NCBI RefSeq assembly: GCF_003018255.1
Contig: NZ_CP027440.1
DNA from: Escherichia coli
Lineage (GTDB): Bacteria > Pseudomonadota > Gammaproteobacteria > Enterobacterales > Enterobacteriaceae
DNA: 64,000 nt
Direction: 5' to 3' (one strand)
In this document: positions 5,424-26,500 of the stretch, piece by piece
Layout: each line of letters opens with the position of its first letter
Position numbering within the stretch: the stretch's first letter is position 1
Notes under the pieces: model-generated
What the model was told of the DNA's origin: nothing
Databases searched by the model: none
Seen by the model: only the letters and a program-made list of their open reading frames with translations
Position numbers and translations under genes: made by a program

Positions 5424-6809
5424 ATGCTAAAAATCTTCAATACTCTGACACGCCAAAAAGAGGAATTTAAGCCTATTCACGCCGGGGAAGTCGGCATGTA
5501 CGTGTGTGGAATCACCGTTTACGATCTCTGTCATATCGGTCACGGGCGTACCTTTGTTGCTTTTGACGTGGTTGCGCGCTATCTGCGTTTCCTCGGCTAT
5601 AAGCTGAAGTATGTGCGCAACATTACCGATATCGACGACAAAATCATCAAACGCGCCAATGAAAATGGCGAAAGCTTTGTAGCGCTGGTGGATCGCATGA
5701 TCGCCGAAATGCACAAAGATTTTGATGCTTTGAATATTCTGCGCCCGGATATGGAGCCGCGCGCGACGCACCATATCGCAGAAATTATTGAACTCACTGA
5801 ACAACTGATCGCCAAAGGTCACGCGTATGTGGCGGACAACGGCGACGTGATGTTCGACGTACCGACCGATCCGACTTATGGCGTGCTGTCGCGTCAGGAT
5901 CTCGACCAGTTGCAGGCAGGCGCGCGCGTTGACGTAGTCGATGACAAACGCAACCCAATGGATTTCGTTCTGTGGAAGATGTCGAAAGAGGGCGAACCGA
6001 GCTGGCCGTCGCCGTGGGGCGCGGGCCGTCCAGGCTGGCACATTGAATGTTCGGCAATGAACTGCAAGCAGCTGGGTAACCACTTTGATATCCACGGCGG
6101 CGGTTCAGACCTGATGTTCCCGCACCACGAGAACGAAATCGCGCAGTCCACCTGTGCCCATGATGGTCAGTATGTGAACTACTGGATGCACTCGGGGATG
6201 GTGATGGTTGACCGCGAGAAGATGTCCAAATCGCTGGGTAACTTCTTTACCGTGCGCGATGTGCTGAAATACTACGACGCGGAAACCGTGCGTTACTTCC
6301 TGATGTCAGGCCACTATCGCAGCCAGCTGAACTACAGCGAAGAGAACCTGAAGCAGGCACGCGCGGCGCTGGAGCGTCTCTACACTGCGCTGCGTGGCAC
6401 AGATAAAACCGTTGCGCCTGCCGGTGGCGAAGCGTTTGAAGCGCGCTTTATTGAAGCGATGGACGACGATTTCAACACCCCGGAAGCCTATTCCGTGCTG
6501 TTTGATATGGCGCGTGAAGTGAACCGTCTGAAAGCAGAAGATATGGCAGCGGCGAATGCAATGGCATCTCACCTGCGTAAACTTTCCGCTGTATTGGGCC
6601 TGCTGGAGCAAGAACCGGAAGCGTTCCTGCAAAGCGGTGCGCAGGCAGACGACAGCGAAGTGGCTGAGATTGAAGCGTTAATTCAACAGCGTCTGGATGC
6701 CCGTAAAGCGAAAGACTGGGCGGCGGCAGATGCGGCGCGTGACCGTCTTAACGAGATGGGGATCGTGCTGGAAGATGGCCCGCAAGGGACCACCTGGCGT
6801 CGTAAGTAA
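5424..6809 (+). CDS. cysS: cysteinyl-tRNA synthetase
   Basis: 461-aa ORF with class I HIGH (CHIGHGRT) and KMSKS motifs. Confidence 0.97.
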
Positions 6810-6814
6810 TTGCG

Positions 6815-6845
6815 CTATTGCCGGATGCGAGTTTTCGCATCCGGT
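6815..6845. repeat. REP-like palindrome between convergent cysS and ybcI (probable bidirectional terminator hairpin)
   Basis: gccggatgcgagttttcgcatccgg inverted repeat directly after cysS stop. Confidence 0.5.
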
Positions 6846-7366
6846 TATCGTCTGCGCCACCACAACATTCCCATCAGTAGCATCCCCGGCAACCACACCC
6901 ACATCAATTCAGAAATAATCACCTGATGCCCGTACGGCGTGGTGTAACGAGACAATGCAAACGGCGCGACTTTAATCACCTGCCAGGGAGCGAAAAAGCG
7001 TTCATCTGACCACGGCCACAGCCAGCCAACGCCTTTACCGCCAGTGGTTACCGAATCCAGCAAGCTGTGCGATAGCAACGAGACGGTTAAAAACAGCCAG
7101 CAGCGAATCAGCCCAGCCCTGAACCATCGACGTCCAATCAGCACACATAACAGCGGGACAACAAACGCAAACACCAGCGAATGGGTAAACCCGCGATGAC
7201 CAAAAACATTGCCGTAAGCAAAGCCAAATTTAAACGACAATACGTCGGCATCAGGCAGCATCGCCAGGACGATTCCGGCAAATAACAGGCGCGGAGGGAT
7301 GACTTTCGAACCCAACCCTAAACCAATGCAAAGGGGAACGGCGGCGTGCGTAATAACGGTTGGCAT
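6845..7366 (-). CDS. ybcI: inner-membrane metal-dependent hydrolase family protein
   Basis: 173-aa hydrophobic ORF in conserved position. Confidence 0.8.
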   Translation of the reverse strand: MPTVITHAAVPLCIGLGLGSKVIPPRLLFAGIVLAMLPDADVLSFKFGFAYGNVFGHRGFTHSLVFAFVVPLLCVLIGRRWFRAGLIRCWLFLTVSLLSHSLLDSVTTGGKGVGWLWPWSDERFFAPWQVIKVAPFALSRYTTPYGHQVIISELMWVWLPGMLLMGMLWWRRR

Positions 7367-7473
7367 GATGGTCGCTTCGGCAAAATGTCGATGCTATCAG
7401 CATGGATGAACGGGGCGTAGAGGGCAACAGTCTGAAAAGAGAACCGGCCTGTTGTTACAGGCCGGGAAAGGGA

Positions 7474-7686
7474 TCAGGCAACAACCTGTACGCTGTGACC
7501 TGCAAAACTCACTGTCTGCCCGGCGACGATTTTGCAGCGTTTGCGCGTTTCAACCGCACCGTCGACTTTCACCTGGCCTTCGGCAATCGCGATTTTCGCC
7601 TGCGCGCCGCTTTCGCTCCAGCCTTCCAGTTTCAGCAAGTCGCACAGCTCAACGTGCGGATGTTTACCTAAAGAAAATGTCGCCAT
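7474..7686 (-). CDS. ybcJ: S4-like RNA-binding protein
   Basis: ORF 7474..7740; start placed at internal ATG 7684-7686 (MATFSLGKHPHVELCDLLK...) giving 70 aa, abutting folD stop. Confidence 0.8.
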   Translation of the reverse strand: MATFSLGKHPHVELCDLLKLEGWSESGAQAKIAIAEGQVKVDGAVETRKRCKIVAGQTVSFAGHSVQVVA

Positions 7687-7687
7687 G

Positions 7688-8554
7688 TTACTCACCCTGT
7701 GGATCATGATATTCAACGCACGCCTGTAGCGTGTTTTCAATCAGCGTGGCAACCGTCATCGGGCCAACGCCGCCCGGAACAGGCGTAATGTATGAGGCGC
7801 GTTTAGCCGCGTCTTCAAACACGACGTCGCCCACAACTTTGCCATTTTCCAGACGGTTGATGCCGACATCAATCACAATTGCGCCTTCTTTGATCCAGTC
7901 ACCAGGAATAAAGCCCGGCTTGCCGACGGCAACGATCAGTAGATCGGCATTTTCTACGTGGTGACGCAGATTTTTAGTGAAACGGTGAGTCACGGTGGTG
8001 GTGCAACCTGCCAGTAGCAGTTCCATGCTCATCGGGCGGCCAACGATATTCGATGCGCCAATCACCACGGCGTTGAGGCCGAAGGTATCAATGTTGTAAC
8101 GCTCAAGCAGCGTGACAATACCGCGCGGGGTGCAGGGACGCAGACGCGGCGCGCGCTGGCACAGGCGACCGACGTTATAAGGATGGAAACCGTCCACGTC
8201 TTTGTCCGGGTGTATACGTTCCAGCACTTTGACGTTATCAATACCCGCCGGTAACGGCAGTTGAACCAGAATGCCATCGATGGTGTTGTCGGCATTCAGC
8301 GCATCGATAAGCTCCAGCAGCTCCGCTTCGCTGGTGGTTTCCGGGAGGTCATAAGAGCGGGAGACGAACCCGACTTCTTCACAAGCCTTGCGTTTGCTTG
8401 CGACATAAATTTGCGATGCAGGGTTACTACCCACCAGCACAACGGCCAGTCCTGGTGCCCGCAGTCCGGCTGCAATACGCGCCTGAACTTTTTGAGCAAC
8501 TTCAGAGCGCACCTGCTGCGCAATCGTTTTACCGTCAATAATCTTTGCTGCCAT
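7688..8554 (-). CDS. folD: bifunctional 5,10-methylene-tetrahydrofolate dehydrogenase/cyclohydrolase
   Basis: 288-aa [26 protein letters not shown]... Confidence 0.97.
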
Positions 8555-8765
8555 CAGAGAGAGGATTCCATCTGTTACGTAGGTCGAAGGGGATGCGTCT
8601 ATTTTGTCAGAAGCGTGGCGCGCTGTCAGTTTTCGTTTTCTGAAAAGTAAAACCTTCTGTACCTGGCTGATTCACACCTATCATGATAACCGTCGTTGGT
8701 TTGCCGCCATAGTGAGCTACATCTGATGCGGTCGTACACTTGTTCAGCAACTGGTTCAAAAGCCA

Positions 8766-8793
8766 TTGACTCAGCAAGGGTTGACCGTATAAT
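8766..8793 (+). promoter_or_regulatory. candidate sigma70 promoter for argU
   Basis: TTGACT (8766-8771), 16-bp spacer, TATAAT (8788-8793), about 30 bp upstream of the tRNA 5' end. Confidence 0.5.
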
Positions 8794-8824
8794 TCACGCG
8801 ATTACAGCACACCGTGGTATCAAT

Positions 8825-8901
8825 GCGCCCTTAGCTCAGTTGGATAGAGCAACGACCTTCTAAGTCGTGGGCCGCAGGTTCGAATCCTGCAGGGCGCGCC
8901 A
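8825..8901 (+). tRNA. argU: tRNA-Arg (anticodon UCU)
   Basis: 77-nt sequence gcgcccttagctcagttggatagagcaacgaccttctaagtcgtgggccgcaggttcgaatcctgcagggcgcgcca with CCA end; anticodon loop cuUCUaa. Confidence 0.95.
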
Positions 8902-8908
8902 TTAAAAT

Positions 8909-9536
8909 TCAATCAGTTACGCCTTCTTTATTTCTTCTATAATTCCAGAGTGGGACATTATCACCAAAAATGTCGTCTATTTTCCTCGCGTGCTCAGTCA
9001 AATGATTAGGCGCAAGGTGAGCATATCTACGAACCATTTCTCTGGACTCCCATCCGCCCATTTCCTGAAGCACTGATAATGGGACGCCTGACGGAATCAA
9101 CCAGCTTGCCCAGGTATGCCAGAGGTCATGGAAACGGAAATTTTCAATTCCTGCACGACGACAAGCTGATAGCCATGCTGTCTTGCTGTCAATGCGCATC
9201 TTCCTGAGCGCAGGCATTGATGTTCCATCTGCTCGCTTAGCCGCCCTGGTATGTACACCCACATTTGTGATGCTTGCCTGTTTGATCACGCAACACTTTA
9301 GAGGCGGTATCGTTCAGCGCCACACCAATGGCGCAGTTTGATTTGCTATCTTCTGGATTCACCCTGGCAACTTGTCGCTGCATGTCAATCTGTTGCCACT
9401 CCAGATTTATGATGTTCGACTTTCTCAGAACAGTTACCAGCGCAAATTTGACGACAGATTTCAGTGGTTCGGGGCTCTCATCAATCAGGCGTTTGGCCTG
9501 ATTCTTTTGTAAGTCTCTTGTGCCATTCCACCTCAT
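8909..9536 (-). pseudogene. tyrosine recombinase/integrase pseudogene (frameshifted, N-terminally truncated)
   Basis: Two overlapping minus-strand ORFs in different frames (8909..9289 with catalytic-region HDLWHTWAS and RRYAHL; 9237..9536) totalling about 210 aa; no N-terminal domain upstream. Confidence 0.8.
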
Positions 9537-9948
9537 ACAGGTTTGCCTGCAAACAGTACTGATATTGCCCAGATATTCCGGCTGGCTTCGTGGTTGTTTT
9601 CAACAGTGATGAGGCATCGTGGCATCTCGTTGAAGACCATCGGGGTAAAACGGTTTATGACGTGGCATCAGGGGACGCATTATTTATTTCTGAACTCGGT
9701 CCGTTACCGGAAAATGTCACCAGGTATCCCCGGCAGGGGAGTTTCAGAAGTGGAACGGCATATCATGGATAAAGGATACGGAGGAAGAAACCTCGTTGCT
9801 GGAAGCCTGGAAGATGTATCGGGTGTTGCTGAACCGAGTTGATACATCAACTGCCCCTGATATTTAGTGGCCTGTGAACCCTGTCAGAGAGTAATCATTG
9901 GGATTATGCCGCAGAACGTCGTGCGCAAGAACGTGCTGCGGCTGGATG

Positions 9949-10617
9949 CTATTTTTTCCCTGAAGCGGAAAACATTACTACAGTACCTTTAACCTTGGTT
10001 TTAACATTCTCGAAATGCTCTGAGAGTATATGTGTTAAGCCTTCTTCGGAATCTTTTGTGTTTGAAAAGATGCCTTTCTGATTGTAAATGCGCATCAGTT
10101 TTTGACCGAAGCTATTGTGCACAACGCCGTCACCAAGAATTGTGGCTCCGTATAGAGTTCCATCGTCAGTTAAGGCCTGCGCCGCATTGCGTATTACACA
10201 GCTTTTTGTAGATATATTTCCAGGCAGGCAGTGAAGAAGGTAAAACATGGAAATGGAATCAAATTGACCATGTAACGCCGCGGGATAAGGATCAAAAACA
10301 TCATGGCTAATTTTATGTTTAATTTTTGATTCCCCAGCCCTTGTCGATGCCGCGTTCAGGCTAGCTTCGTTCAAATCCATTAAAGATATCAGACTACTCT
10401 CAGGTACGTGAGTAAGGTAAAACCCAGTTCCAACGCCAATATCCAGATGGTTGTTACCTAAATGTTCCAGAAAGTGTGGAAGAAGGTGTTCCTTTGTAGG
10501 ACATCCCCATGCAAGCCGATTTGATACACCCAAAACCCACCAGTCATAAAGCTTTAGGGTAAGTGGTGTGTAAATTTTAGCCCCATCATCTGTGTTTTTT
10601 TTCATTAGTTTCACCAT
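9949..10617 (-). CDS. class I SAM-dependent methyltransferase (prophage-associated, YbcY-like)
   Basis: 222-aa ORF with SAM-binding motif I LDIGVGTGFYL. Confidence 0.7.
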   Translation of the reverse strand: MVKLMKKNTDDGAKIYTPLTLKLYDWWVLGVSNRLAWGCPTKEHLLPHFLEHLGNNHLDIGVGTGFYLTHVPESSLISLMDLNEASLNAASTRAGESKIKHKISHDVFDPYPAALHGQFDSISMFYLLHCLPGNISTKSCVIRNAAQALTDDGTLYGATILGDGVVHNSFGQKLMRIYNQKGIFSNTKDSEEGLTHILSEHFENVKTKVKGTVVMFSASGKK

Positions 10618-10848
10618 GTTATAGTTTTATTTGTGAATTAAATCAATTATAGCGATGAATTACAAGGGGTTAAATGATGCCACGGCATAACGAATTTGAA
10701 TATATTGAGTCTTGTGTTGCGGTAAGAGGTTACACGCCAGGACGCAGGTTAAATGCTTACAAGATTAGGGGATATTGTTTGCTTTTAACGGTAAACAAAT
10801 TCCCCGGGGCTATACAATACCACCGGGGAGAAAATCTATTTAACGTTG

Positions 10849-11802
10849 TTAAAAGGTGTACTTAAGACCAGCAGTAGTGATGAAGTTATAGTTTTCTATG
10901 CCTGCACCATTTTTGCTGTAGTCAGAAGTGTTATCATTGTGATCATAAAGTGAAGTATCACCTTTTTTATTCGTAACCCGATTCCATGCGCCTTCAATAT
11001 AAACTTTTGCATTAGGCGTTACGTAATAACCTGCATTGACTGCAACAGAATAGTAATTTTGGTCTTTGACTTTACTGCGATAAGTGATTCTTTTTCCTGG
11101 GTCATAGTGTTCATCGTTATCAGATGCTTCCACCCAGCCGCTGTATTTAAATGTGCCACCTAGCTCAAAATCTTCATAACGATAACTTCCAGTCAAGCCA
11201 ATGTAGGGCATTTTAAAACGTTGTTTGTAGCCGATTGCTCTTTCTCCATTCGGGAAGGAGCCGATATCATCTCTGAATCCCTCCTCAGAACTGTAGATAT
11301 AGGAACCACCTCTGGCTGTAAAGCTATAACGGCTTTCCTGATATCCGGCCATGAGTCCCAGGCGGTAATTGGGTTCGTTGAGGAACCAGCCTTTGATATT
11401 CAGATCAAATTCGTTGGCATAATTGAGTTGTGTATCAGGGTGTCTACTTTCATCCGTCCAGGTTCCGGGGTTACTGGAATCCATCCAGTCCTGATCGACC
11501 ATATTGCCACCTCGGCTGCCGAGTGTTGTCCAGCCAGCAGCCCCGATAGATATCTGGGGCATCAAATCCCAATTAATTGCACCTTTAATAATTGCAGCGT
11601 TATTGAATTTCCAGTCAAGTTGACTGACTTTTCGGCCTCCTTCTTCGGCTAGATAAACACGCTCTTTTGTTTTTCCGCTCAGAGTTCCAAGACTAATGTC
11701 CGCATTTATGTTGTCAGGAGTAAACGATAAAGTCTCGGTAGAAGCAAAAGAGCTGATCGCAATAGGGGTTGTCAGGACTATTCCCAGAAGTTTCGCCCGC
11801 AT
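10849..11802 (-). CDS. ompT: outer-membrane protease VII (omptin)
   Basis: 317-aa ORF MRAKLLGIVLTTPIAISSFAST..., beta-barrel ending ...TAGLKYTF. Confidence 0.95.
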   Translation of the reverse strand: MRAKLLGIVLTTPIAISSFASTETLSFTPDNINADISLGTLSGKTKERVYLAEEGGRKVSQLDWKFNNAAIIKGAINWDLMPQISIGAAGWTTLGSRGGNMVDQDWMDSSNPGTWTDESRHPDTQLNYANEFDLNIKGWFLNEPNYRLGLMAGYQESRYSFTARGGSYIYSSEEGFRDDIGSFPNGERAIGYKQRFKMPYIGLTGSYRYEDFELGGTFKYSGWVEASDNDEHYDPGKRITYRSKVKDQNYYSVAVNAGYYVTPNAKVYIEGAWNRVTNKKGDTSLYDHNDNTSDYSKNGAGIENYNFITTAGLKYTF

Positions 11803-12225
11803 AAAAGGTCTCCATTCAATCGTTTTAATGATTGAGTATGTATTTTTTATATCTAACTTAATGAGTCAATTGTATATTGCCCCACTGTTTATATTTTGTT
11901 TAACATTGAATTTTTGTCACAATGCACTGTCAGTTTTTTAGTTTAATTGTCTGTTTGTGTTTTGCATTGTGGTTTTATGGGCTAATTATTTTTTTCTTTG
12001 TGGAGTTTTTATCTATTCAAGTACCATGCCTTTAGATGCATATTAGCGATAATAGCATGAGGTTTATCCTCAATTGCTGTGTTTTTTAGTATAAAAAAGA
12101 GGAACAAAACTGAGACACATAAGGCCTCGCAATGGCTTGCAAGGTTTTACATATTTTGAGGTGGTGGAACGTGTGAACGCAGAGATGGCGCGGTAATTTG
12201 TTGATTTAAAATGTCGTTCCTGGAG

Positions 12226-12270
12226 TTTCTAAGTCGTGGGCTACAGGTTCGAATCCTGCAGGGCGAGCCA
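12226..12270 (+). repeat. argU 3'-end direct repeat (prophage attR core)
   Basis: tctaagtcgtgggctacaggttcgaatcctgcagggcgagcca matches the last ~45 nt of argU with about 3 mismatches. Confidence 0.75.
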
Positions 12271-12460
12271 TTTCCTCGCCATTTATTTGTTCCCTTTTAC
12301 AAATTACACCATCACTTTGTTGTCGCGGTTTTGCTAAATAATTGGAACACGTCAGACGAATAAAATGAAAACAGAAATTCTGCTAAACAATTCATCTTGC
12401 CAGGATTTTGATTAGGAAAGTGAAAAGGAAAGGAGCAAGCTAAGTTGCTCCCTTTAATCA

Positions 12461-18699: not shown

Positions 18700-19900
18700 A
18701 GACAAAAGCGTGGTGTCAAGGAGGGGAGGTTAACGCAGGGAAAGATTACGAAAGCCCGCTCCCAGCAAGGACTGACGCGAGATAGTTTCTGTCCATGGCT
18801 GCTTTTCGCAACTTACGTCTTAACCCTGCCTTGAATACCTTATCATTCGTCAAAATATTAATAGCGATGTGCCGTAGCCCTGAAAATAATTCTGCTGCAT
18901 TTCCTCTTCTTATTTTGCAGTCGTCTTCATTCATTACCACGTCCAGACGCCAGTGCAGCTTATTCTCCACGTGCCAGTGGTTTCGGATTGCTGTGGCGAA
19001 CTTCTCTGCGGTTAAATCAGCAGAACTGATATAATATCTGACCGTCATTTCTGGCTCTTTCTTTTGTTCTGCTATTATTGACCGAAAGGAGACTGCCACG
19101 CATAATTTCTTCAGTCCTTTCCATTCAAACGTGAAATCAATAAGTTCATCAGGGACATCGCAAACAATGTGAAGCCGGATTTCTTCTCTGCCGTGACTCT
19201 TTTCACTAATTGCGTAACTGTCATGCTCTGGATTATTTAATTCTTTCAGTGGGAATTTTTCCTCAAAGGCTTTATTAAGCCGCCCCTGATTTCCTTTTAC
19301 AGCGAATAAATAATCACCGCCCTGTTTTTGTATCTTCTCTGCAATATCTTTCTGGCAACCCATCGCATCAGTTGTGATGATTTTTCCTTTAATATCCAGC
19401 ATGTTAAGAAGTTCTGGGATAGCTGTAATCTCATTAGATTTCTCATCCGTCCTGATCTGTCCGATGACCAGACTGTGCATTGTTGAGAACGCACTAATGA
19501 CATGAATCGCTCCCCTGCGGCGACTCCTGTCATAAGAATGCCGGAGTGTTTTTCCATCGATTGCAATAACGTCTTTATCATCTGAAGTATGGCAATCTCG
19601 CATCCAGTTAATAAAGCACTCGTGAAATTTTGAAGGACTGATACAGGATACAACTCTGGCGATGGTATCGTGAACAGGAATACCATTTTCAAAATCACCA
19701 TATTGTTTTAAAAAATCGAGATGTGTTTCCCCAAAATCCTCTATATCTTCCCAGCCTTCTGCACCAGAAATAACGGCACAAATAGTCAACAGTAGAATAT
19801 CCGACAATTTATGTTCCACTTTCCAGGCTTGTCTGTAATCGGGGATAATAGAAATATGTTCCATCAATTTTTTAAGTTCCATTTTGTTCTCCTTAATTAT
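18700..19900. mobile_element. ISAs1-family (H-repeat) insertion element at the distal end of the Rhs island; boundaries approximate
   Basis: Contains an H-repeat-type transposase ORF; this family is classically found at the end of E. coli Rhs elements. Confidence 0.6.
18746..19882 (-). CDS. ISAs1-family transposase (H-repeat-associated protein)
   Basis: 378-aa [54 protein letters not shown]... typical of H-rpt/YhhI-type transposases. Confidence 0.85.
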
Positions 19901-19908
19901 GTAAGGAG

Positions 19909-20146
19909 TATTTGATCATGTATACGCAATAAAAAACAGCTTCAGGTAATGAGGAATATCTCGATTTTTAAACATAAAATGCGAATTACTTAGTACAAAA
20001 AATGTACTTCTGATGATCTTTCCCTGGTATTTGATCATGTATAAGCAATAAAAAACAGCTTCAGGTAATGAGGAATATCTCAATTTTTAAACATAAAATG
20101 CGAATTGTTTAGTACAAAAAAGCAGCGTTACGTGATCTTTCCCTGG
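19909..20146. repeat. tandem duplication, 2 x 119 bp, next to the H-repeat transposase start
   Basis: tatttgatcatgtatacgcaataaaaaacagcttcaggtaatgaggaatatctc... repeated at 19909 and 20028; copies diverge in their last third. Confidence 0.85.
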
Positions 20147-20230
20147 TGCAGGAACTGAGGAAGGAACTTTATCAGGTTAAACAGGTGGTGAAGGGAATGA
20201 AGAACGGGATATCCGGCGTATTACGCGAGG

Positions 20231-20266
20231 TATAAAAATAAAAGCCGGGAGATTGTCACTCCCGGC
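20231..20266 (-). terminator. candidate intrinsic terminator after the orphan immunity gene
   Basis: Hairpin gccgggag...ctcccggc followed on the minus strand by a T-rich run (ttttatttttat). Confidence 0.5.
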
Positions 20267-20272
20267 AACATA

Positions 20273-20554
20273 TTATTTTTTTATTTCATTATATCTGATA
20301 AAAAAAGTATTTAGCGCATCATGTTCATCTTGTGAGAACAATAAAATAATTTTATCCCATGAATGTCCTGTTACTCCATAATAGTCTTCAATATAAGATT
20401 GAAGCCTTATTAATATCTCAATATTGACGATTTCTTTTGGCTCTCTCATTTGCCATCCATCCAGGAAAGCTTTTAACGCCGATATGGTATGCCTGCTTAA
20501 ATATAAAGCTGGTCTTTTTTCTATCATATCAATCAGTTTAACAATATCATTCAT
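20273..20554 (-). CDS. putative immunity protein for the orphan Rhs toxin tip (RhsI-like)
   Basis: 93-aa AT-rich ORF starting 2 nt after the toxin-tip stop; position is the only evidence. Confidence 0.5.
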   Translation of the reverse strand: MNDIVKLIDMIEKRPALYLSRHTISALKAFLDGWQMREPKEIVNIEILIRLQSYIEDYYGVTGHSWDKIILLFSQDEHDALNTFFIRYNEIKK

Positions 20555-20556
20555 AA

Positions 20557-21180
20557 TTAAAACCTTGATGGAGTAATGGTGTATTCGCCAGGAGAGTATA
20601 TATCATTCAGCCAATCTTCATACTTTATACCAGAAGGATTCATATTATCAAAAACTGTATCACCTACTTTTATTGCTTCATGATGACCATTAGTTGCTAT
20701 ATTTTTACCTATTCTATCACTCCATATATTGCCAAAGGCACCTTGTTTATTTTTAGTTTCGAGTATGAGATGCTCACCATTTACCCCAGCTTGTTGCATT
20801 TTACTTTTTAACGCTGCGGCAAATTTATCGCATTGAAAAAGCTGTTTAAACTTATCACTTATTGTTGTTGCAAGATCCCTTGTTTTTGCGATATCGCAAA
20901 TGGTTAATCCTAATGGATCAATATAACCAAGGGGATTATGAACATATGCATAATTGTTTATCCCGCCTCTCAGCCCTATCGGGTCACTCACCAGGTACAT
21001 CCCTGTTTCCGGCTCGTAATACCGGAACCGGTTATAGCACAGCCCGGATTCCGTATCCTGCCACTGTCCTGCATACAGCAGGCCGGGGTCGGGGTCGGCT
21101 TCCGGGTCCAGCTCCCCGCGCGGGTCCGGGTAGCCGGTGTCTGCGGGCAGACTGAGTGCCAGCCCCCACAGGCTGGTTTG
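20557..21180 (-). CDS. orphan Rhs C-terminal toxin cassette (conserved PxxxxDPxGL junction plus about 115-aa variable toxin domain of unknown activity)
   Basis: In frame with orphan core fragment after an in-frame TGA; contains YYEPETGMYLVSDPIGLRGG...NPLGYIDPLGL then an AT-rich divergent tail. Confidence 0.65.
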   Translation of the reverse strand, partial: QTSLWGLALSLPADTGYPDPRGELDPEADPDPGLLYAGQWQDTESGLCYNRFRYYEPETGMYLVSDPIGLRGGINNYAYVHNPLGYIDPLGLTICDIAKTRDLATTISDKFKQLFQCDKFAAALKSKMQQAGVNGEHLILETKNKQGAFGNIWSDRIGKNIATNGHHEAIKVGDTVFDNMNPSGIKYEDWLNDIYSPGEYTITPSRF

Positions 21181-22476
21181 TCACGGTCGCCACACGGTTT
21201 TACCTTCACTGTTAAAGAGCATCAGCGGACGGCCCGTCAGGTCGCTCACCGCATGATTCGTCCGCGTCACCCACTGCGGGGCCACCGACGGATGCGGCTG
21301 CCGTACCCGGCTGCACTGCTGGCTTATCAGCTCAAAGCCGTTAAACACCAGGTGCCGTACGCTGTACAGTTTATCATCGCGGTATTCCCGGATTTCCGCA
21401 ATATTGTCGCCGTCCCACAGGTACGTAAAACGGATTTTCTTCCGGTCGCAGCGTTTTTCCGTCCGCCTGCCGCTGGCGTCGTAGCGGTATTCCCACTGCT
21501 CACCCTGTGCGCTGCAATACCCGGTCAGCTGGTCACGGCTGTCCCACCGGAACCGCTCTGTTTCCGGGCGGTAGCCGTCACGGTGTCTGGTGCGGCTGAC
21601 CATCCGGCCTGCGGCGTCATAGTCATACTGCGTGTTTCCGGCCTGTTTCAGCCGGTGGCCTCCGGCATACTGGTCAGTCTCTTCACTTATCCGGTGCCTG
21701 CCCGCAGACTGCGCCTTCAGGTAGCCACAACTGTCATAGCCATAGGACTCATCGCCTTCGCCATAGCCCAGCCCGGTGCCTGAGGCTGTCACCGCCGTGA
21801 CCTGACCGTTCCGGTCCAGCCGGTATTCCCGCCGTGTTTCCCGTCCGTAATCTTCCCGGCTGGTGACAGCCGACACATTGCCCGCGCTGTCGTAACGGTA
21901 CTCCCGTACCAGTGAGGGGAGCAGCCCGCCCCATGTGGTTTCCTCCGGGAAAAATCCGGCGCGCTGGGTGACAAGCTGGCTGGCTGCATTCCAGCCCTGC
22001 TCACAGGCAAAACCCCGGTTACTGTGCCGGAGCACTTCACGTCCTGCCTCATCACGGCTGAACGTCAGCGTCTCATCCCCCGGCAGGATAACCTCCGTCA
22101 GTTCTCCGGCGGCGTTGTAGCGGTAGGTGGTTTTCAGCAGGGATTCACCGGGATGTCTGTCGCGTTCATCTTCCGGTGGCAGGATACAGCGGATGACGGT
22201 GTGTTCATCGGGGTAGTGGTATTCAATGGCCCGTCGGCCCTGAGTGGTGACATTCACCCGCCCGCGTTCGTCATAGCCGGTGCGCTGTGATGTGCCGTCC
22301 GGGCTGAAGATACCCGTCAGCCTGCCGGATTTGTCATACGCATACTGCGTTTTGCCTTCCGGCGTGATGACTTCTGCCAGGCGGCCTGCGGCGTCCCGGC
22401 TGTAGAGGATGGTTTCCTCCAGACCGTTAACCCTGGCGGTACACAGGCCATCGGCGTCATAGCGGTAACGCCAGGC
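21181..22476 (-). pseudogene. orphan rhs core 3' fragment (no start or N-terminus), near-identical duplicate of the 3' core of the main rhs gene
   Basis: About 1.3 kb near-identical at DNA level to 23589-24884; YD-repeat translation; homology to main copy ends at about 22476. Confidence 0.8.
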
Positions 22477-22503
22477 TACTCCGTTGTACCCAGCTCATAG
22501 AAT

Positions 22504-22926
22504 TTATCTAGCAATTTGTATTAAGGGGGTTTCACCCACATGTTTTAATAAACTCATTAACCAGATGGCCTCTTCTCTCGTTCCGGAGTATATTACCTTC
22601 GATTCATTTCTAATAATTCGAAGTGCTTCTTTTGTATCAATCGAAAAAGCCTTACGAATGACTTTTATAGTTTCCATCTGTGATTTTATATTTTCAAGTC
22701 TAACATTCCATAAACCCTCAAAATCAATCAATTGTAGACGAATTTTTTCTGGGGGAAAGCCTATATCATCTGATTCACTACGTAATCCGCAATTATGGCA
22801 TATAATTGATTCATACCATGCGAGTATACCATTGTGACTCGTCTGCCCTATAGCTATAGAACATATTTTTCCACAGCAAGGACACTCAATAGTCGTTTTA
22901 AATTCATCACCAAACACTATAACCAC
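22504..22926 (-). CDS. putative immunity protein for the main Rhs toxin (RhsI-like), Cys-rich zinc-ribbon-like N-terminus
   Basis: 140-aa ORF overlapping the toxin stop; CPCCGKIC ... CHNCG cysteine pairs. Confidence 0.55.
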   Translation of the reverse strand: MVIVFGDEFKTTIECPCCGKICSIAIGQTSHNGILAWYESIICHNCGLRSESDDIGFPPEKIRLQLIDFEGLWNVRLENIKSQMETIKVIRKAFSIDTKEALRIIRNESKVIYSGTREEAIWLMSLLKHVGETPLIQIAR

Positions 22927-23588
22927 CCTCTCATCCGCTTATATCTTCGAATCGTCTCGTAAAATTTCTGTTCCATCTCAGTACCTTTGGGATGATGATC
23001 ATTCAATCCTCGCTTCCACCACCTATGATGTAATTCTTCATGAATAATAACATCTCTTAATGCTGCACGAGACGAAAAACTATTTTTACCAAACTGAGTT
23101 CCTTCCCAAAGTTTAGCAATCCCTGTTCGCATAAACGGATTGTATTGAGGGATATATGTTAGTTTAAGATATGCAAAATCTTCTTTAAGTATGGCTGTAA
23201 TTGCCTTATTTCTGGCTCTGGCCGTAGAACCTGTAACATGACCGAGATCAGAAACATAAGTCTGTGGCCCTCTAGAAAACTCGACTGTTTTATTAATTAT
23301 ACTAGTTATAGCTAATCCCAGCGGATCAACATACCCACACGGATTAGGCACATACCGGTAAGTCTGCTCACCCCCCAGCAACCCCAGCGGATCACTCACC
23401 AGGTACATCCCTGTTTCCGGCTCGTAATACCGGAACCGGTTATAGCACAACCCGGATTCCGCATCCCGCCACTGTCCTGCATACAGCAGGCCGGGGTCGG
23501 GGTCGGCTTCCGGGTCCAGCTCCCCGCGCGGGTCCGGGTAGCCGGTGTCTGCGGGCAGACTGAGTGCCAGCCCCCACAGGCTGGTTTG
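22917..23588 (-). CDS. C-terminal extension of main Rhs protein: PxxxxDPxGL junction plus about 130-aa toxin domain with HExxH motif
   Basis: Same frame as Rhs core, separated by TGA at 23589-23591; translation ...[20 protein letters not shown]...VDPLGL then ...[13 protein letters not shown]... Confidence 0.65.
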   Translation of the reverse strand, partial: [223 protein letters not shown]

Positions 23589-26500
23589 TCACGGTCGCCA
23601 CACGGTTTTACCTTCACTGTTAAAGAGCATCAGCGGACGGCCCGTCAGGTCGCTCACCGCATGATTCGTCCGCGTCACCCACTGCGGGGCCACCGACGGA
23701 TGCGGCTGCCGTACCCGGCTGCACTGCTGGCTTATCAGCTCAAAGCCGTTAAACACCAGGTGCCGTACGCTGTACAGTTTATCATCGCGGTATTCCCGGA
23801 TTTCCGCAATATTGTCGCCGTCCCACAGGTACGTAAAACGGATTTTCTTCCGGTCGCAGCGTTTTTCCGTCCGCCTGCCGCTGGCGTCGTAGCGGTATTC
23901 CCACTGCTCACCCTGTGCGCTGCAATACCCGGTCAGCTGGTCACGGCTGTCCCACCGGAACCGCTCTGTTTCCGGGCGGTAGCCGTCACGGTGTCTGGTG
24001 CGGCTGACCATCCGGCCTGCGGCGTCATAGTCATACTGCGTGTTTCCGGCCTGTTTCAGCCGGTGGCCTCCGGCATACCGCTCAGTCTCTTCACTTATCC
24101 GGTGCCTGCCCGCAGACTGCGCCTTCAGGTAGCCGCAGCTGTCATAGCCATAAGTCTCATCGCCTTCGCCATAGCCCAGCCCGGTGCCTGAGGCTGTCAC
24201 CGCCGTGACCTGGCCGTTCCGGTCCAGCCGGTACTCCCGGCGTGTTTCCCGTCCGTAATCTTCCCGGCTGGTGACACCTGACACGTTACCCGCGCTGTCG
24301 TAACGGTACTCCCGTACCAGTGACGGAACCAGCCCGCCCCATGTGGCTTCTTCCGGAAAAAATCCGGCGCGCTGGCTGACAGGCTGGCCGGCTGCATTCC
24401 AGCCCTGCTCACAGGCAAAACCCCGGTTACTGTGCCGGAGCACTTCACGTCCTGCCTCATCACGGCTGAACGTCAGCGTCTCATCCCCCGGCAGGATAAC
24501 CTCCGTCAGTTCTCCGGCGGCGTTGTAGCGGTAGGTGGTTTTCAGCAGGGATTCATCGGGGTGTCTGTCGCGTTCATCTTCCGGTGGCAGGATACAGCGG
24601 ATGACGGTGTGTTCATCGGGGTAATGGTACTCAATGGCCCGTCGGCCCTGAGTGGTGACATTCACCCGCCCGCGTTCGTCATAGCCGGTGCGCTGTGATG
24701 TGCCGTCCGGGCTGAAGATACCCGTCAGCCTGCCGGATTTGTCATACGCATACTGCGTTTTGCCTTCCGGCGTGATGATTTCTGCCAGGCGGCCTGCGGC
24801 GTCCCGGCTGTAGAGGATGGTTTCCTCCAGGCCGTTAACCCTGGCGGTACACAGGCCATCGGCGTCATAGCGGTAACGCCAGGTCACGCCGCCCCAGTCA
24901 TGCTCTTCCGTCACCCGCCCACAGTTGTCGAGAAGATAACGGTATGACTCACCCTGCGGGTTGATGACTTCTGTCAGTTGCAGCGTGTCTTTATCATAGC
25001 GGTACTGCCAGCGGTGGCCTTCACCGTCCGTTCGCGCCACCGGCAAATCAAACGGGCCGTATTCCATTGTCCAGACAACGCCGTTACCGTCCGTGTACGC
25101 CAGCAGGTTGCCGTGGCGGTCATAGCGGAATCCTTCTGCGCCGGTTCCTGCCCGCTCAAGGCCGCTCAGTTTATGGTGCTGCTGCCACTGCAACCGCACT
25201 GACTGACCGCCGGGGCCGCGCATCTTCACCGGCAGGTCGTGACCACTGTATTCGGTGTGGTGTTCACGGCCCATCACGTCGGTGAGTGTTTCCGGCCGGT
25301 TGTGGTGGTCGTACTCTATGCCCAGACGCCGTTCATCCTGGCGGAATATCCCCGACAGCAGCCCCTGAGCGGTGTACGCCAGCCGGGTCTCTTCGCCCTG
25401 TGGCGATACCAGACTCACCGGCAGGCCGCGTTCATCGCACTGCTGTGTCCACGTCTGCCCGGCAGGGTCGGTGATGTTGCTGAGCAGGCCGCGCTCATCA
25501 TAGCGGTACAACCACACCGCGCCGTCTGCCGCCGTATAACGGCTTAACTGACCGTGTACGGCGTTGTATTCAAATTTCTCCACCCGTCCGGCAGGGGAGT
25601 GGCGGGCCAGCAGGTGATGGAATTCATCCCATTCATACGTGGTGGTGCTGCCGTCCGGCGCTTCTTCCCGCAGAATATTGCCGTCAGGATCATAGTAATA
25701 ACGGTGAATGCCCTTGCCGTCCGTCACGGTGGTGCAGCCGTCACTATAGTCCAGCGTGGCGTTGTAATAGCCGTCCGCCCCGGTGACATTCACGCACCGG
25801 CCCTGTTCATCGTAGGTGAAACGGCTCCACGTCTGGTCGTTATCGGACCAGCGGATGATCCGGTCCGCAGCGTCGTACTCATAAAACAGGTGGTAGTCCA
25901 GCCGCGCATCCGCTTCGGTCAGCCGCCCCCGCGCATCCTGTTCGTAGGTCGCCAGCGTCTGTATGCCGTTATCCGTGCGGTGAATGGCTTTCAGGTAGCC
26001 GCTGGCGTGGTACGTCAGTTTAAGCCGGATCCCGTCGGTGTGACTGACACCCGTGATGCGGTACTGGCTGTCGCGCTCAAACGTGATGCGGTTGCTGGCG
26101 GTGTCGCTCATCCCGCCCAGCATGTACATCCGGTCACCGGGGCTGTGTGCCAGGCGGTCATCATTGGTATCGTCAGTCACCGGGTGGCGCAGGCGCATTC
26201 CCGGAAAGGCGTCATAAAAGAAGCGGCTGCTCAGGGCATCACGGTCGAACAGCTCCAGGTAATCGTCGCGGCGGCGCAGGATATACTGGGCGTGATACGG
26301 GTTAACCGCCGTATCACTGTCTCCGTCGAAGGCAAAGTACAGCGTGGCTCCCTGGCTGATGATATCCACCCGGTTTCCCTGTTCACGCACCCAGGCGTAT
26401 TCGCTCCAGGAGTCGCTCCAGCCCACGCCCGTCAGGCCATGCAGTGGCAGTACAGAACTGTGGAAACGGGTGAAGGAGAGGGGGAGTGTCTGGCCCAGCG

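Follow-up and report, generated by a model that had tools for sequence, protein, structure and literature searches.

The genes folD and argU lie only 270 bp apart in the 64-kb stretch of Escherichia coli DNA analysed here (the window, in whose coordinates the intervening spacer is 8555-8824), where E. coli K-12 carries the fimbrial operon sfmACDHF and the response-regulator gene fimZ. The whole of this spacer is homologous to K-12, and its middle reads as a decayed fragment of fimZ. The same spacer, of the same length and with the same junctions, is found in Escherichia marmotae and in two other lineages outside E. coli. We consider it very likely that the spacer is an inherited scar of the loss of sfmACDHF and fimZ, and probable that it was made once, before these lineages and E. 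coli diverged. The absence of sfm from phylogroup B2 is already published, and the gap as first reported for this window is correct but known; the sharing of an identical scar between species appears to be new relative to the passages on this locus in the published accounts.

The gene order in the window is ppiB, cysS, ybcI, ybcJ, folD and then argU, according to the open reading frame (ORF) list and ARAGORN. The first-pass annotation of the window had put the start of folD at 8554 and argU at 8825, 270 bp apart, and these positions are borne out by both sources and by the RefSeq annotation of JNE112863 (L002), which is, with JNE23-011, one of the two closest genomes (99.8% identity to the window across 24 kb) and has folD and a tRNA-Arg gene at exactly the window coordinates with an empty interval between them. 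It had also placed sfmACDHF and fimZ between the two genes in K-12, and NC_000913.3 agrees, reading folD, sfmA, sfmC, sfmD, sfmH, sfmF, fimZ, argU; the alternative that it had raised, that folD and argU might be equally close in K-12, does not hold, the distance there being 6,981 bp. Searches with the K-12 sfm and fimZ genes (blastn and tblastn, E<=1e-3) found no homologue elsewhere in the 64-kb window, and on its gene content the strain would be unable to make Sfm fimbriae or FimZ. The two genes that anchor the comparison are as follows; the argU sequence is 100% identical across all lineages compared.

7688-8554, minus strand: folD coding sequence, left anchor of the scar (ORF list and L002 annotation; 98.0% identity to K-12 folD)
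8825-8901, plus strand: argU, tRNA-Arg(UCU), right anchor and prophage integration site (single tRNA in ARAGORN; Rfam tRNA, 72 bits)

Against the K-12 MG1655 folD-argU locus (L001, the alignment reference), the spacer resolves into 84 bp next to folD, 64 bp of fimZ relic and 122 bp next to argU. In blastn, homology on the left (98.3%) stops abruptly at 8638 and homology on the right starts at 8694, with two weak matches between these flanks that are colinear, in the same orientation and within the 5' end of fimZ. An ungapped model in which K-12 fimZ lacks 138 bp gives the length of the relic exactly, and deletions of 6,450, 138, 115 and 8 bp account for the full 6,711 bp by which 6,981 exceeds 270. 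The deletion scars that the first-pass annotation had proposed to look for by alignment with K-12 are therefore present, and there are four deletions. When the spacer was aligned globally to the full K-12 interval at a low gap-extension cost, its middle 55-64 bp were scattered on chance matches; local matches, the explicit model and a permutation test took the place of that alignment. The parts and junctions are:

8555-8638, no strand assigned: retained folD-proximal spacer, equivalent to L001 2743-2826; 80 of 84 bases match K-12
8639-8687, minus strand: fimZ relic part 1, FimZ receiver-domain codons ~57-72 (...IDLPGTDGFTFLK...), equivalent to L001 9277-9325
8688-8702, minus strand: fimZ relic part 2, codons 2-6 (KPTSV), start codon lost, equivalent to L001 9464-9478
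8703-8824, no strand assigned: retained argU-proximal part of the fimZ-argU spacer, equivalent to L001 9594-9723 less 8 bp
8638/8639: junction 1, the 6,450-bp deletion, running from the folD-sfmA spacer into fimZ codon ~72
8687/8688: 138-bp in-frame deletion inside fimZ, joining relic part 1 to part 2
8702/8703: 115-bp deletion that took the start of fimZ and the DNA upstream of it; it lies between GTTGGTTT and GTTTGTTT
Beyond the 115-bp junction, further into the argU-proximal part: 8-bp deletion

No IS (insertion sequence) element, IS end, att site or other foreign DNA was found at the junctions, the 270 bp being wholly K-12-homologous. In K-12 the 138-bp deletion is flanked by 13-bp perfect direct repeats, TATCCATAATGAT (L001 9313-9325 and 9451-9463), which encode both IIMD motifs of FimZ, and the microhomology TTTCAG occurs on both sides of the 6,450-bp junction.

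Several lines of evidence point to the middle 64 bp being a decayed relic of the 5' end of fimZ. When its 49-mer is compared with both strands of the 6.8 kb that are missing relative to K-12, the best ungapped match falls in fimZ (L001 9277, 34/49), a score reached by 0 of 2,000 shuffles. Translated from the minus strand, the relic matches FimZ in BLASTP with E=5e-7, and a less decayed allele, P0122, which reads NPTSIIIIDANLPGTDGFAFQK, does so with E=3e-8; in K-12 FimZ, residues 2-10 are KPTSVIIMD and residues 53-69 are IIMDIDLPGTDGFTFLK. The relic runs from codons 72 to 57, then from 6 to 2, then into the upstream spacer, on the strand and at the position of fimZ, and at 53 of its 64 positions the K-12 fimZ base is kept in at least one of four Escherichia lineages. 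It is 25-30% diverged from E. coli fimZ, differing at 16-19 of 64 positions from E. coli-type fimZ and at 20-25 of 64 from the E. albertii type. Compared with the FimZ proteins of other genera, those of Escherichia form a long branch.

Because the spacer holds this relic, the compact state is derived. An ancestral operon-bearing state is supported by synteny in the two E. albertii loci (L009, L010) and in Salmonella enterica (L011), where a chaperone-usher operon and fimZ lie between folD and tRNA-Arg(UCU). The Salmonella cluster, fimAICDHF-fimZ-fimY-fimW followed by tRNA-Arg(UCU), is the intact syntenic counterpart of the window locus, which likewise has folD and then tRNA-Arg(UCU), and the relic derives from the fimZ member of a cluster of this type. 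Unlike K-12, Salmonella has two extra genes between fimZ and the tRNA, with products of 241 and 198 aa, which we take to be fimY and fimW; the proteins of its cluster are 58-72% identical to those of K-12, and of the cluster the window keeps only 64 bp. Passages on the subject in Wurpel et al. (2013, PMC3559732) describe Sfm and Salmonella Fim as ancient and as occupying an identical locus position, and place an operon at this locus in Citrobacter and Enterobacter as well.

The scar extends beyond E. coli. A pattern scan of species representatives, based on argU and eight bases of its leader, returned four loci and included no representatives of E. coli, E. marmotae or E. fergusonii, so that absence from it is uninformative. 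One of the four, Escherichia sp. MOD1-EC7003 (L008), has a spacer that aligns gaplessly with that of the window at 91% identity and with the same junctions. A second genome of this lineage (L014) was obtained by lookup of the exact MOD1 FolD protein, which also occurs in several E. coli backgrounds and does not isolate the lineage; we found no literature on MOD1-EC7003. Used as a query against the protein database, the relic-frame ORF brought up two further alleles directly beside folD: P0123, from E. marmotae (292 contigs, including CP025979.1), and P0122, from a lineage labelled E. coli with other gene content around the locus. A folD-argU distance of exactly 270 bp and a gapless alignment are common to the window, sequence types ST131 and ST95, the MOD1-EC7003 lineage (L008, L014), E. 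marmotae (L018, L019) and a third lineage (L023, L024, L026). In cysS, ybcJ and folD, 14-22% of four-fold degenerate sites separate these non-coli lineages from E. coli (the core divergence), compared with 3-11% within E. coli; they are not E. coli, and no L023-like or MOD1-like allele occurs among the 5,426 complete E. coli genomes surveyed.

Divergence of the scar was set against this core divergence with 127 bp lying outside two promoter-proximal segments and presumed neutral, in four lineages and with ST131 standing for the E. coli core:

Window and MOD1: scar 11.0%, core 14.9%
Window and E. marmotae: scar 14.2%, core 18.5%
Window and L023: scar 16.5%, core 16.3%
MOD1 and E. marmotae: scar 18.1%, core 22.5%
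MOD1 and L023: scar 19.7%, core 20.7%
E. marmotae and L023: scar 14.2%, core 17.6%

Over these six pairs the two measures are correlated (r=0.79), and a four-point test on either of them yields the quartet ((E. coli, MOD1), (E. marmotae, L023)). The deepest scar pairs exceed the deepest four-fold divergence within E. coli, 10.8% (p=0.014 and p=0.04), and the distances from the E. coli scar to those of the other species are not below the core prediction (p=0.28 and p=0.37). At 15 of 162 usable columns the window and MOD1 share one base and K-12 and E. albertii another, and the window and MOD1 have the 8-bp deletion in common, against K-12 and E. albertii. Since E. marmotae and two other non-coli lineages carry the 270-bp scar with the same junctions and with divergences that track the core, the deletion probably predates E. 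coli as a single event, and would have been passed on vertically, to B2-type E. coli among others. A recent introgression of the scar into B2 from one of the sampled non-coli lineages was considered and rejected, no sampled scar being closer to the B2 scar than core divergence predicts.

Within E. coli the compact form is common: 1,123 of the 5,426 complete genomes (~21%) have it, ST131 and ST95 included, at 99% identity or more over the 270 bp in 1,107 of the 1,123. At least 80% of the K-12 interval is present in 4,075 genomes (75%), and the remainder are in other states, such as IS1-mediated deletions. The first-pass annotation was right that the sfm-fimZ locus is absent between folD and argU; the absence is not special to this strain, given how many genomes share the compact form as a common inherited allele. 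The spacer of the window differs at 1 of 270 positions from that of ST131 strain 4993, and at 1 of 270 from that of APEC O18, which we take to be an ST95 strain. On the adjacency of folD and argU and on spacer sequence, the window carries the B2-type sfm/fimZ deletion allele.

Published work has reached the same locus and the same gene set from the side of gene content: passages on sfm in three papers report the operon as absent from phylogroup B2 (PMC3559732; PMC3604780, mBio 2013; PMC6896753, BMC Genomics 2019). The loss has been placed in the B2 progenitor (PMC3559732) or in the GB2 (G + B2) sub-lineage (PMC6896753), and a separate loss in E. fergusonii was proposed in 2013. A share of 65% sfmA-positive strains, none of them in B2, is given within this group of papers (PMC3559732, PMC3604780, PMC6896753), near the 21% compact and 75% operon-bearing genomes found here. 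In the passages concerned, these B2 accounts give presence and absence; the junctions, the fimZ relic and the occurrence of the scar in E. marmotae and other non-coli lineages are not described there.

Losses of a different make can be seen in other E. coli. In L003 (NZ_CM135183.1) the order is folD, IS1, argU with nothing else between (L003 1801-2839), and in L004 (NZ_AP022030.1) IS1 stands between remnants of the usher gene and of fimZ, both truncated (L004 3456-4681). As in the window, part or all of sfm-fimZ is gone, which shows the locus to be dispensable and repeatedly lost; unlike the window, whose scar contains no IS, these deletions have left IS1 at the junction and have other end points. 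Decayed pseudogene relics and "black hole" deletions are a general concept for enterobacterial genomes, and the window resembles them in that a locus for a dispensable surface structure has gone and a short decayed fragment is left. The scar would be notable beside them for its age and its sharing across species rather than for its mechanism.

Of the other histories that could give this distribution, the one closest to the literature is a deletion in the progenitor of B2 (or of G + B2), with later spread of the scar to the E. marmotae, MOD1 and L023 lineages by homologous recombination through the flanks at folD and argU, perhaps aided by specialised transduction that started from the argU prophage site. 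It agrees with the branch on which the passages in PMC3559732 and PMC6896753 place the loss, with a scar that is nearly invariant within E. coli, and with the window itself, where a left flank ~3% from ST131 abuts a scar and right flank that are 99-100% identical to it, which shows that the allele can be moved by recombination; moreover, divergence between B2 and K-12 in the right-hand segment (15/108) is not significantly above four-fold divergence within E. coli. We nevertheless regard it as unlikely. It would need three separate transfers between species, each followed by fixation; the neutral part of the non-coli scars differs by up to 19.7%, compared with the 10.8% of the deepest E. coli four-fold divergence (p=0.014); the scars give the topology of the species quartet and not a star centred on B2; and a relic 25-30% diverged from E. 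coli fimZ has changed too much for an event inside E. coli. Several points do weigh against the reading favoured here. The dating uses ~127 presumably neutral bp in four lineages, with modest power and p values of only 0.014 and 0.04, and the microhomologies are read from K-12, which is 25-30% diverged from the relic and is an imperfect proxy for the sequence that was deleted. The promoters invoked below to account for the deletion end points are consensus matches only. An ancient scar also requires that an intact operon persisted as a second allele or re-entered E. coli, a further unproven event. The left flank of the window is not B2-like, and the published interpretation, in the passages cited, is a loss in the B2 or G + B2 progenitor (PMC3559732, PMC6896753).

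It is also conceivable that nothing was deleted, the compact arrangement being an original empty site into which sfm-fimZ was inserted in K-12-like strains. The operon is indeed patchy, being present in 75% of genomes, the locus adjoins a tRNA integration hot spot, and the divergence of sfm between K-12 and E. albertii is saturated (63% of four-fold sites, against 16% in the flanks), so that the E. coli operon did not simply descend vertically with its flanks. An empty site would hold no fimZ codons, however, and the spacer contains a colinear and correctly oriented fimZ relic; together with the operon that occupies this locus in Salmonella and E. albertii, and also in Citrobacter and Enterobacter as stated by Wurpel et al., this makes an insertion highly improbable. 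Even more doubtful is an independent origin of identical scars in each lineage, driven by the same repeats. The 138-bp deletion between 13-bp perfect repeats, which encode conserved IIMD motifs, could recur, and sfm has been lost independently elsewhere, through IS1 in L003 and L004; yet those losses look different and leave IS1 behind, and the scars share four junctions, an exact length of 270 bp and many derived substitutions. Finally, a functional small protein or small RNA (sRNA) encoded in the spacer might explain its conserved length, but we think this very unlikely. In its favour, the relic-frame ORF (40-67 aa) is uninterrupted in each of the four lineages, some RefSeq records annotate it as a hypothetical protein, and the 270 bp are free of indels despite 7-16% substitution divergence. 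Among the four lineages, however, its ratio of nonsynonymous to synonymous polymorphism (pN/pS) is 0.5-1.0, too high to indicate purifying selection, and the 56-aa ORF matches no Pfam family at E<=10, although so short and decayed a fragment is out of reach of the Response_reg model. In the spacer region only the tRNA reaches threshold in Rfam, other matches being far below the gathering thresholds. The ORF on the plus strand is broken by stop codons in several lineages, and a protein search with it returned only E. coli entries. Variable sites are dense in the relic (17/64) and in the adjoining 63 bp (18/63). The first-pass description of the spacer as non-coding is right in substance, with these 40-67 aa calls in mind, and annotation and gene-content comparisons should treat the spacer as holding a fimZ relic rather than a "hypothetical protein". 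That four lineages show no indel at all over 270 bp is in itself mildly surprising for DNA that otherwise looks neutral.

A history of the scar can be proposed. The ancestor would have carried a chaperone-usher operon (sfmACDHF in E. coli, fimAICDHF in Salmonella) beside fimZ at this locus. The 6,450-bp deletion would have run from the folD-sfmA spacer into fimZ codon ~72 at the TTTCAG microhomology, the in-frame deletion of 138 bp would have occurred between the 13-bp direct repeats, and the 115 bp between GTTGGTTT and GTTTGTTT would have been lost as well, as would the 8 bp further on. We infer slippage or illegitimate recombination because repeats and microhomologies lie at the junctions in K-12. 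The predicted promoters of folD and argU, which are divergent, fall within the retained flanks, close to their inner ends; larger deletions would have damaged them, and the keeping of both would be a likely explanation of the deletion end points. The predicted folD promoter, found on the minus strand by promoter scan, has a -35 hexamer CTGACA (8629-8624), 9 bp from the junction, and a -10 hexamer CAAAAT (8606-8601), and is weaker than the argU site. The latter is sigma-70-like, with TTGACT (8766-8771), a 16-bp spacer and TATAAT (8788-8793), or 11 of 12 consensus matches; K-12, E. albertii and the scar carriers all have these same hexamers, apart from the L023-L026 lineage with its TTGACG. A second, near-consensus TTGACC at 8780-8785 is changed in E. 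albertii and in L023-L026. The folD-proximal 8555-8638 has only six variable sites among the four Escherichia lineages. On these matches, folD and argU probably keep their predicted promoters.

The intact operons have a deep history of their own. At four-fold sites, K-12 sfmACDHF and fimZ differ from their E. albertii counterparts by 63%, effectively saturated, and from those of Salmonella by 64%, whereas for the flanking genes of K-12 the figures are 16% (E. albertii) and 47% (Salmonella). An elevated local mutation rate was rejected as the source of the 63%, since in a comparison inside E. coli, of K-12 with L013, 4.9% of four-fold sites differ in sfm and 8.1% in its flanks. K-12 and E. albertii can be aligned for ~100 bp beyond folD and for ~140 bp before argU, and are hard to align between. 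Conserved flanks thus enclose a minimum of three deep haplotypes at this locus, namely the sfm of E. coli type, that of E. albertii type, and the scar. The operons of E. coli and E. albertii (L001 3213-9481 and L009 10001-16359) are deep alleles rather than simple orthologues. Separately, the E. albertii usher gene seems disrupted, being split into 241 and 618 aa in L010 (2496-5025) and having no gene called in L009 (12172-14802), and that operon may be decaying. We see about an even chance that the scar is the ancestral state of E. coli, with phylogroups A, B1, C, D, E and F carrying in their intact operon an anciently diverged second allele, a reading that the contrast between 63% and 16% supports. 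If the scar is ancestral, the sfm-positive phylogroups would have kept the operon as a very long-lived polymorphism, or regained it when recombination across folD and argU replaced one allele by the other; that specialised transduction from the neighbouring prophage site was the route is speculation.

The flanks of the scar differ in their affinities. On the left (ylbF to folD), identity is ~97% with ST131 and ST95, where 9.6-10.1% of four-fold sites differ, and ~98% with K-12 (6.4%); from the scar to ~12,000 the window is 98.4-100% identical to ST131. The region is a mosaic: these values place a recombination breakpoint at the scar (near 8500-8640), and the left side is not typical of ST131- or ST95-type B2. 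The Clermont phylogroup markers are not within the 64-kb window. To the right, a degraded island lies at argU (8902-12343), with a layout identical in ST131:

8917-9506: frameshifted integrase
9525-9867: tail-fibre-assembly fragment
9949-10617: class I S-adenosylmethionine (SAM) methyltransferase
10849-11802: ompT
~12227-12343: attR-like partial copy of the argU 3' end

APEC O18 has the same scar with a full prophage at argU, and in L014 the DNA beside argU (5529-8415) encodes products that match the type III effector families NleG, SseK/NleB and NleE. The gene envY, which adjoins ybcH in K-12-like strains, L013 and E. albertii, is absent from the window. The other three loci of the pattern scan are on short contigs labelled Segatella copri metagenome-assembled genome (MAG), Streptomyces triticisoli and Collinsella sp. 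MAG (L005, L006, L007); these carry E. coli-type argU regions with 98-99.6% identity to the window or K-12, for which contamination or mis-binning is likely. Farther from the scar, a 100-bp tandem repeat (5.1 copies, 94% matches) lies between ybcF and purK at 1820-2324, and offset BLAST alignments suggest that its copy number varies among strains; downstream of nfrB, at 18746-24000, the L002 annotation gives an ISAs1 transposase pseudogene, a SymE toxin fragment, a papain-fold toxin pseudogene and an Rhs-core gene.

Whether a strain has sfm serves as a trait linked to phylogroup: in a clinical series sfm was associated with non-B2 isolates, and its presence or absence has even been taken as a correlate of clinical outcome (PMC11565901). 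If the scar is as old as proposed, the published order of events, a loss in the B2 progenitor, would be reversed, and presence/absence alleles between folD and argU would be seen to cross species boundaries. Reading the absence of sfm as an adaptive loss in B2 would then be wrong, and the question would become why most E. coli carry a deeply divergent sfm allele. The folD-argU interval would offer a compact and easily scored case of ancient presence/absence polymorphism, or of allelic replacement, beside a phage integration site.

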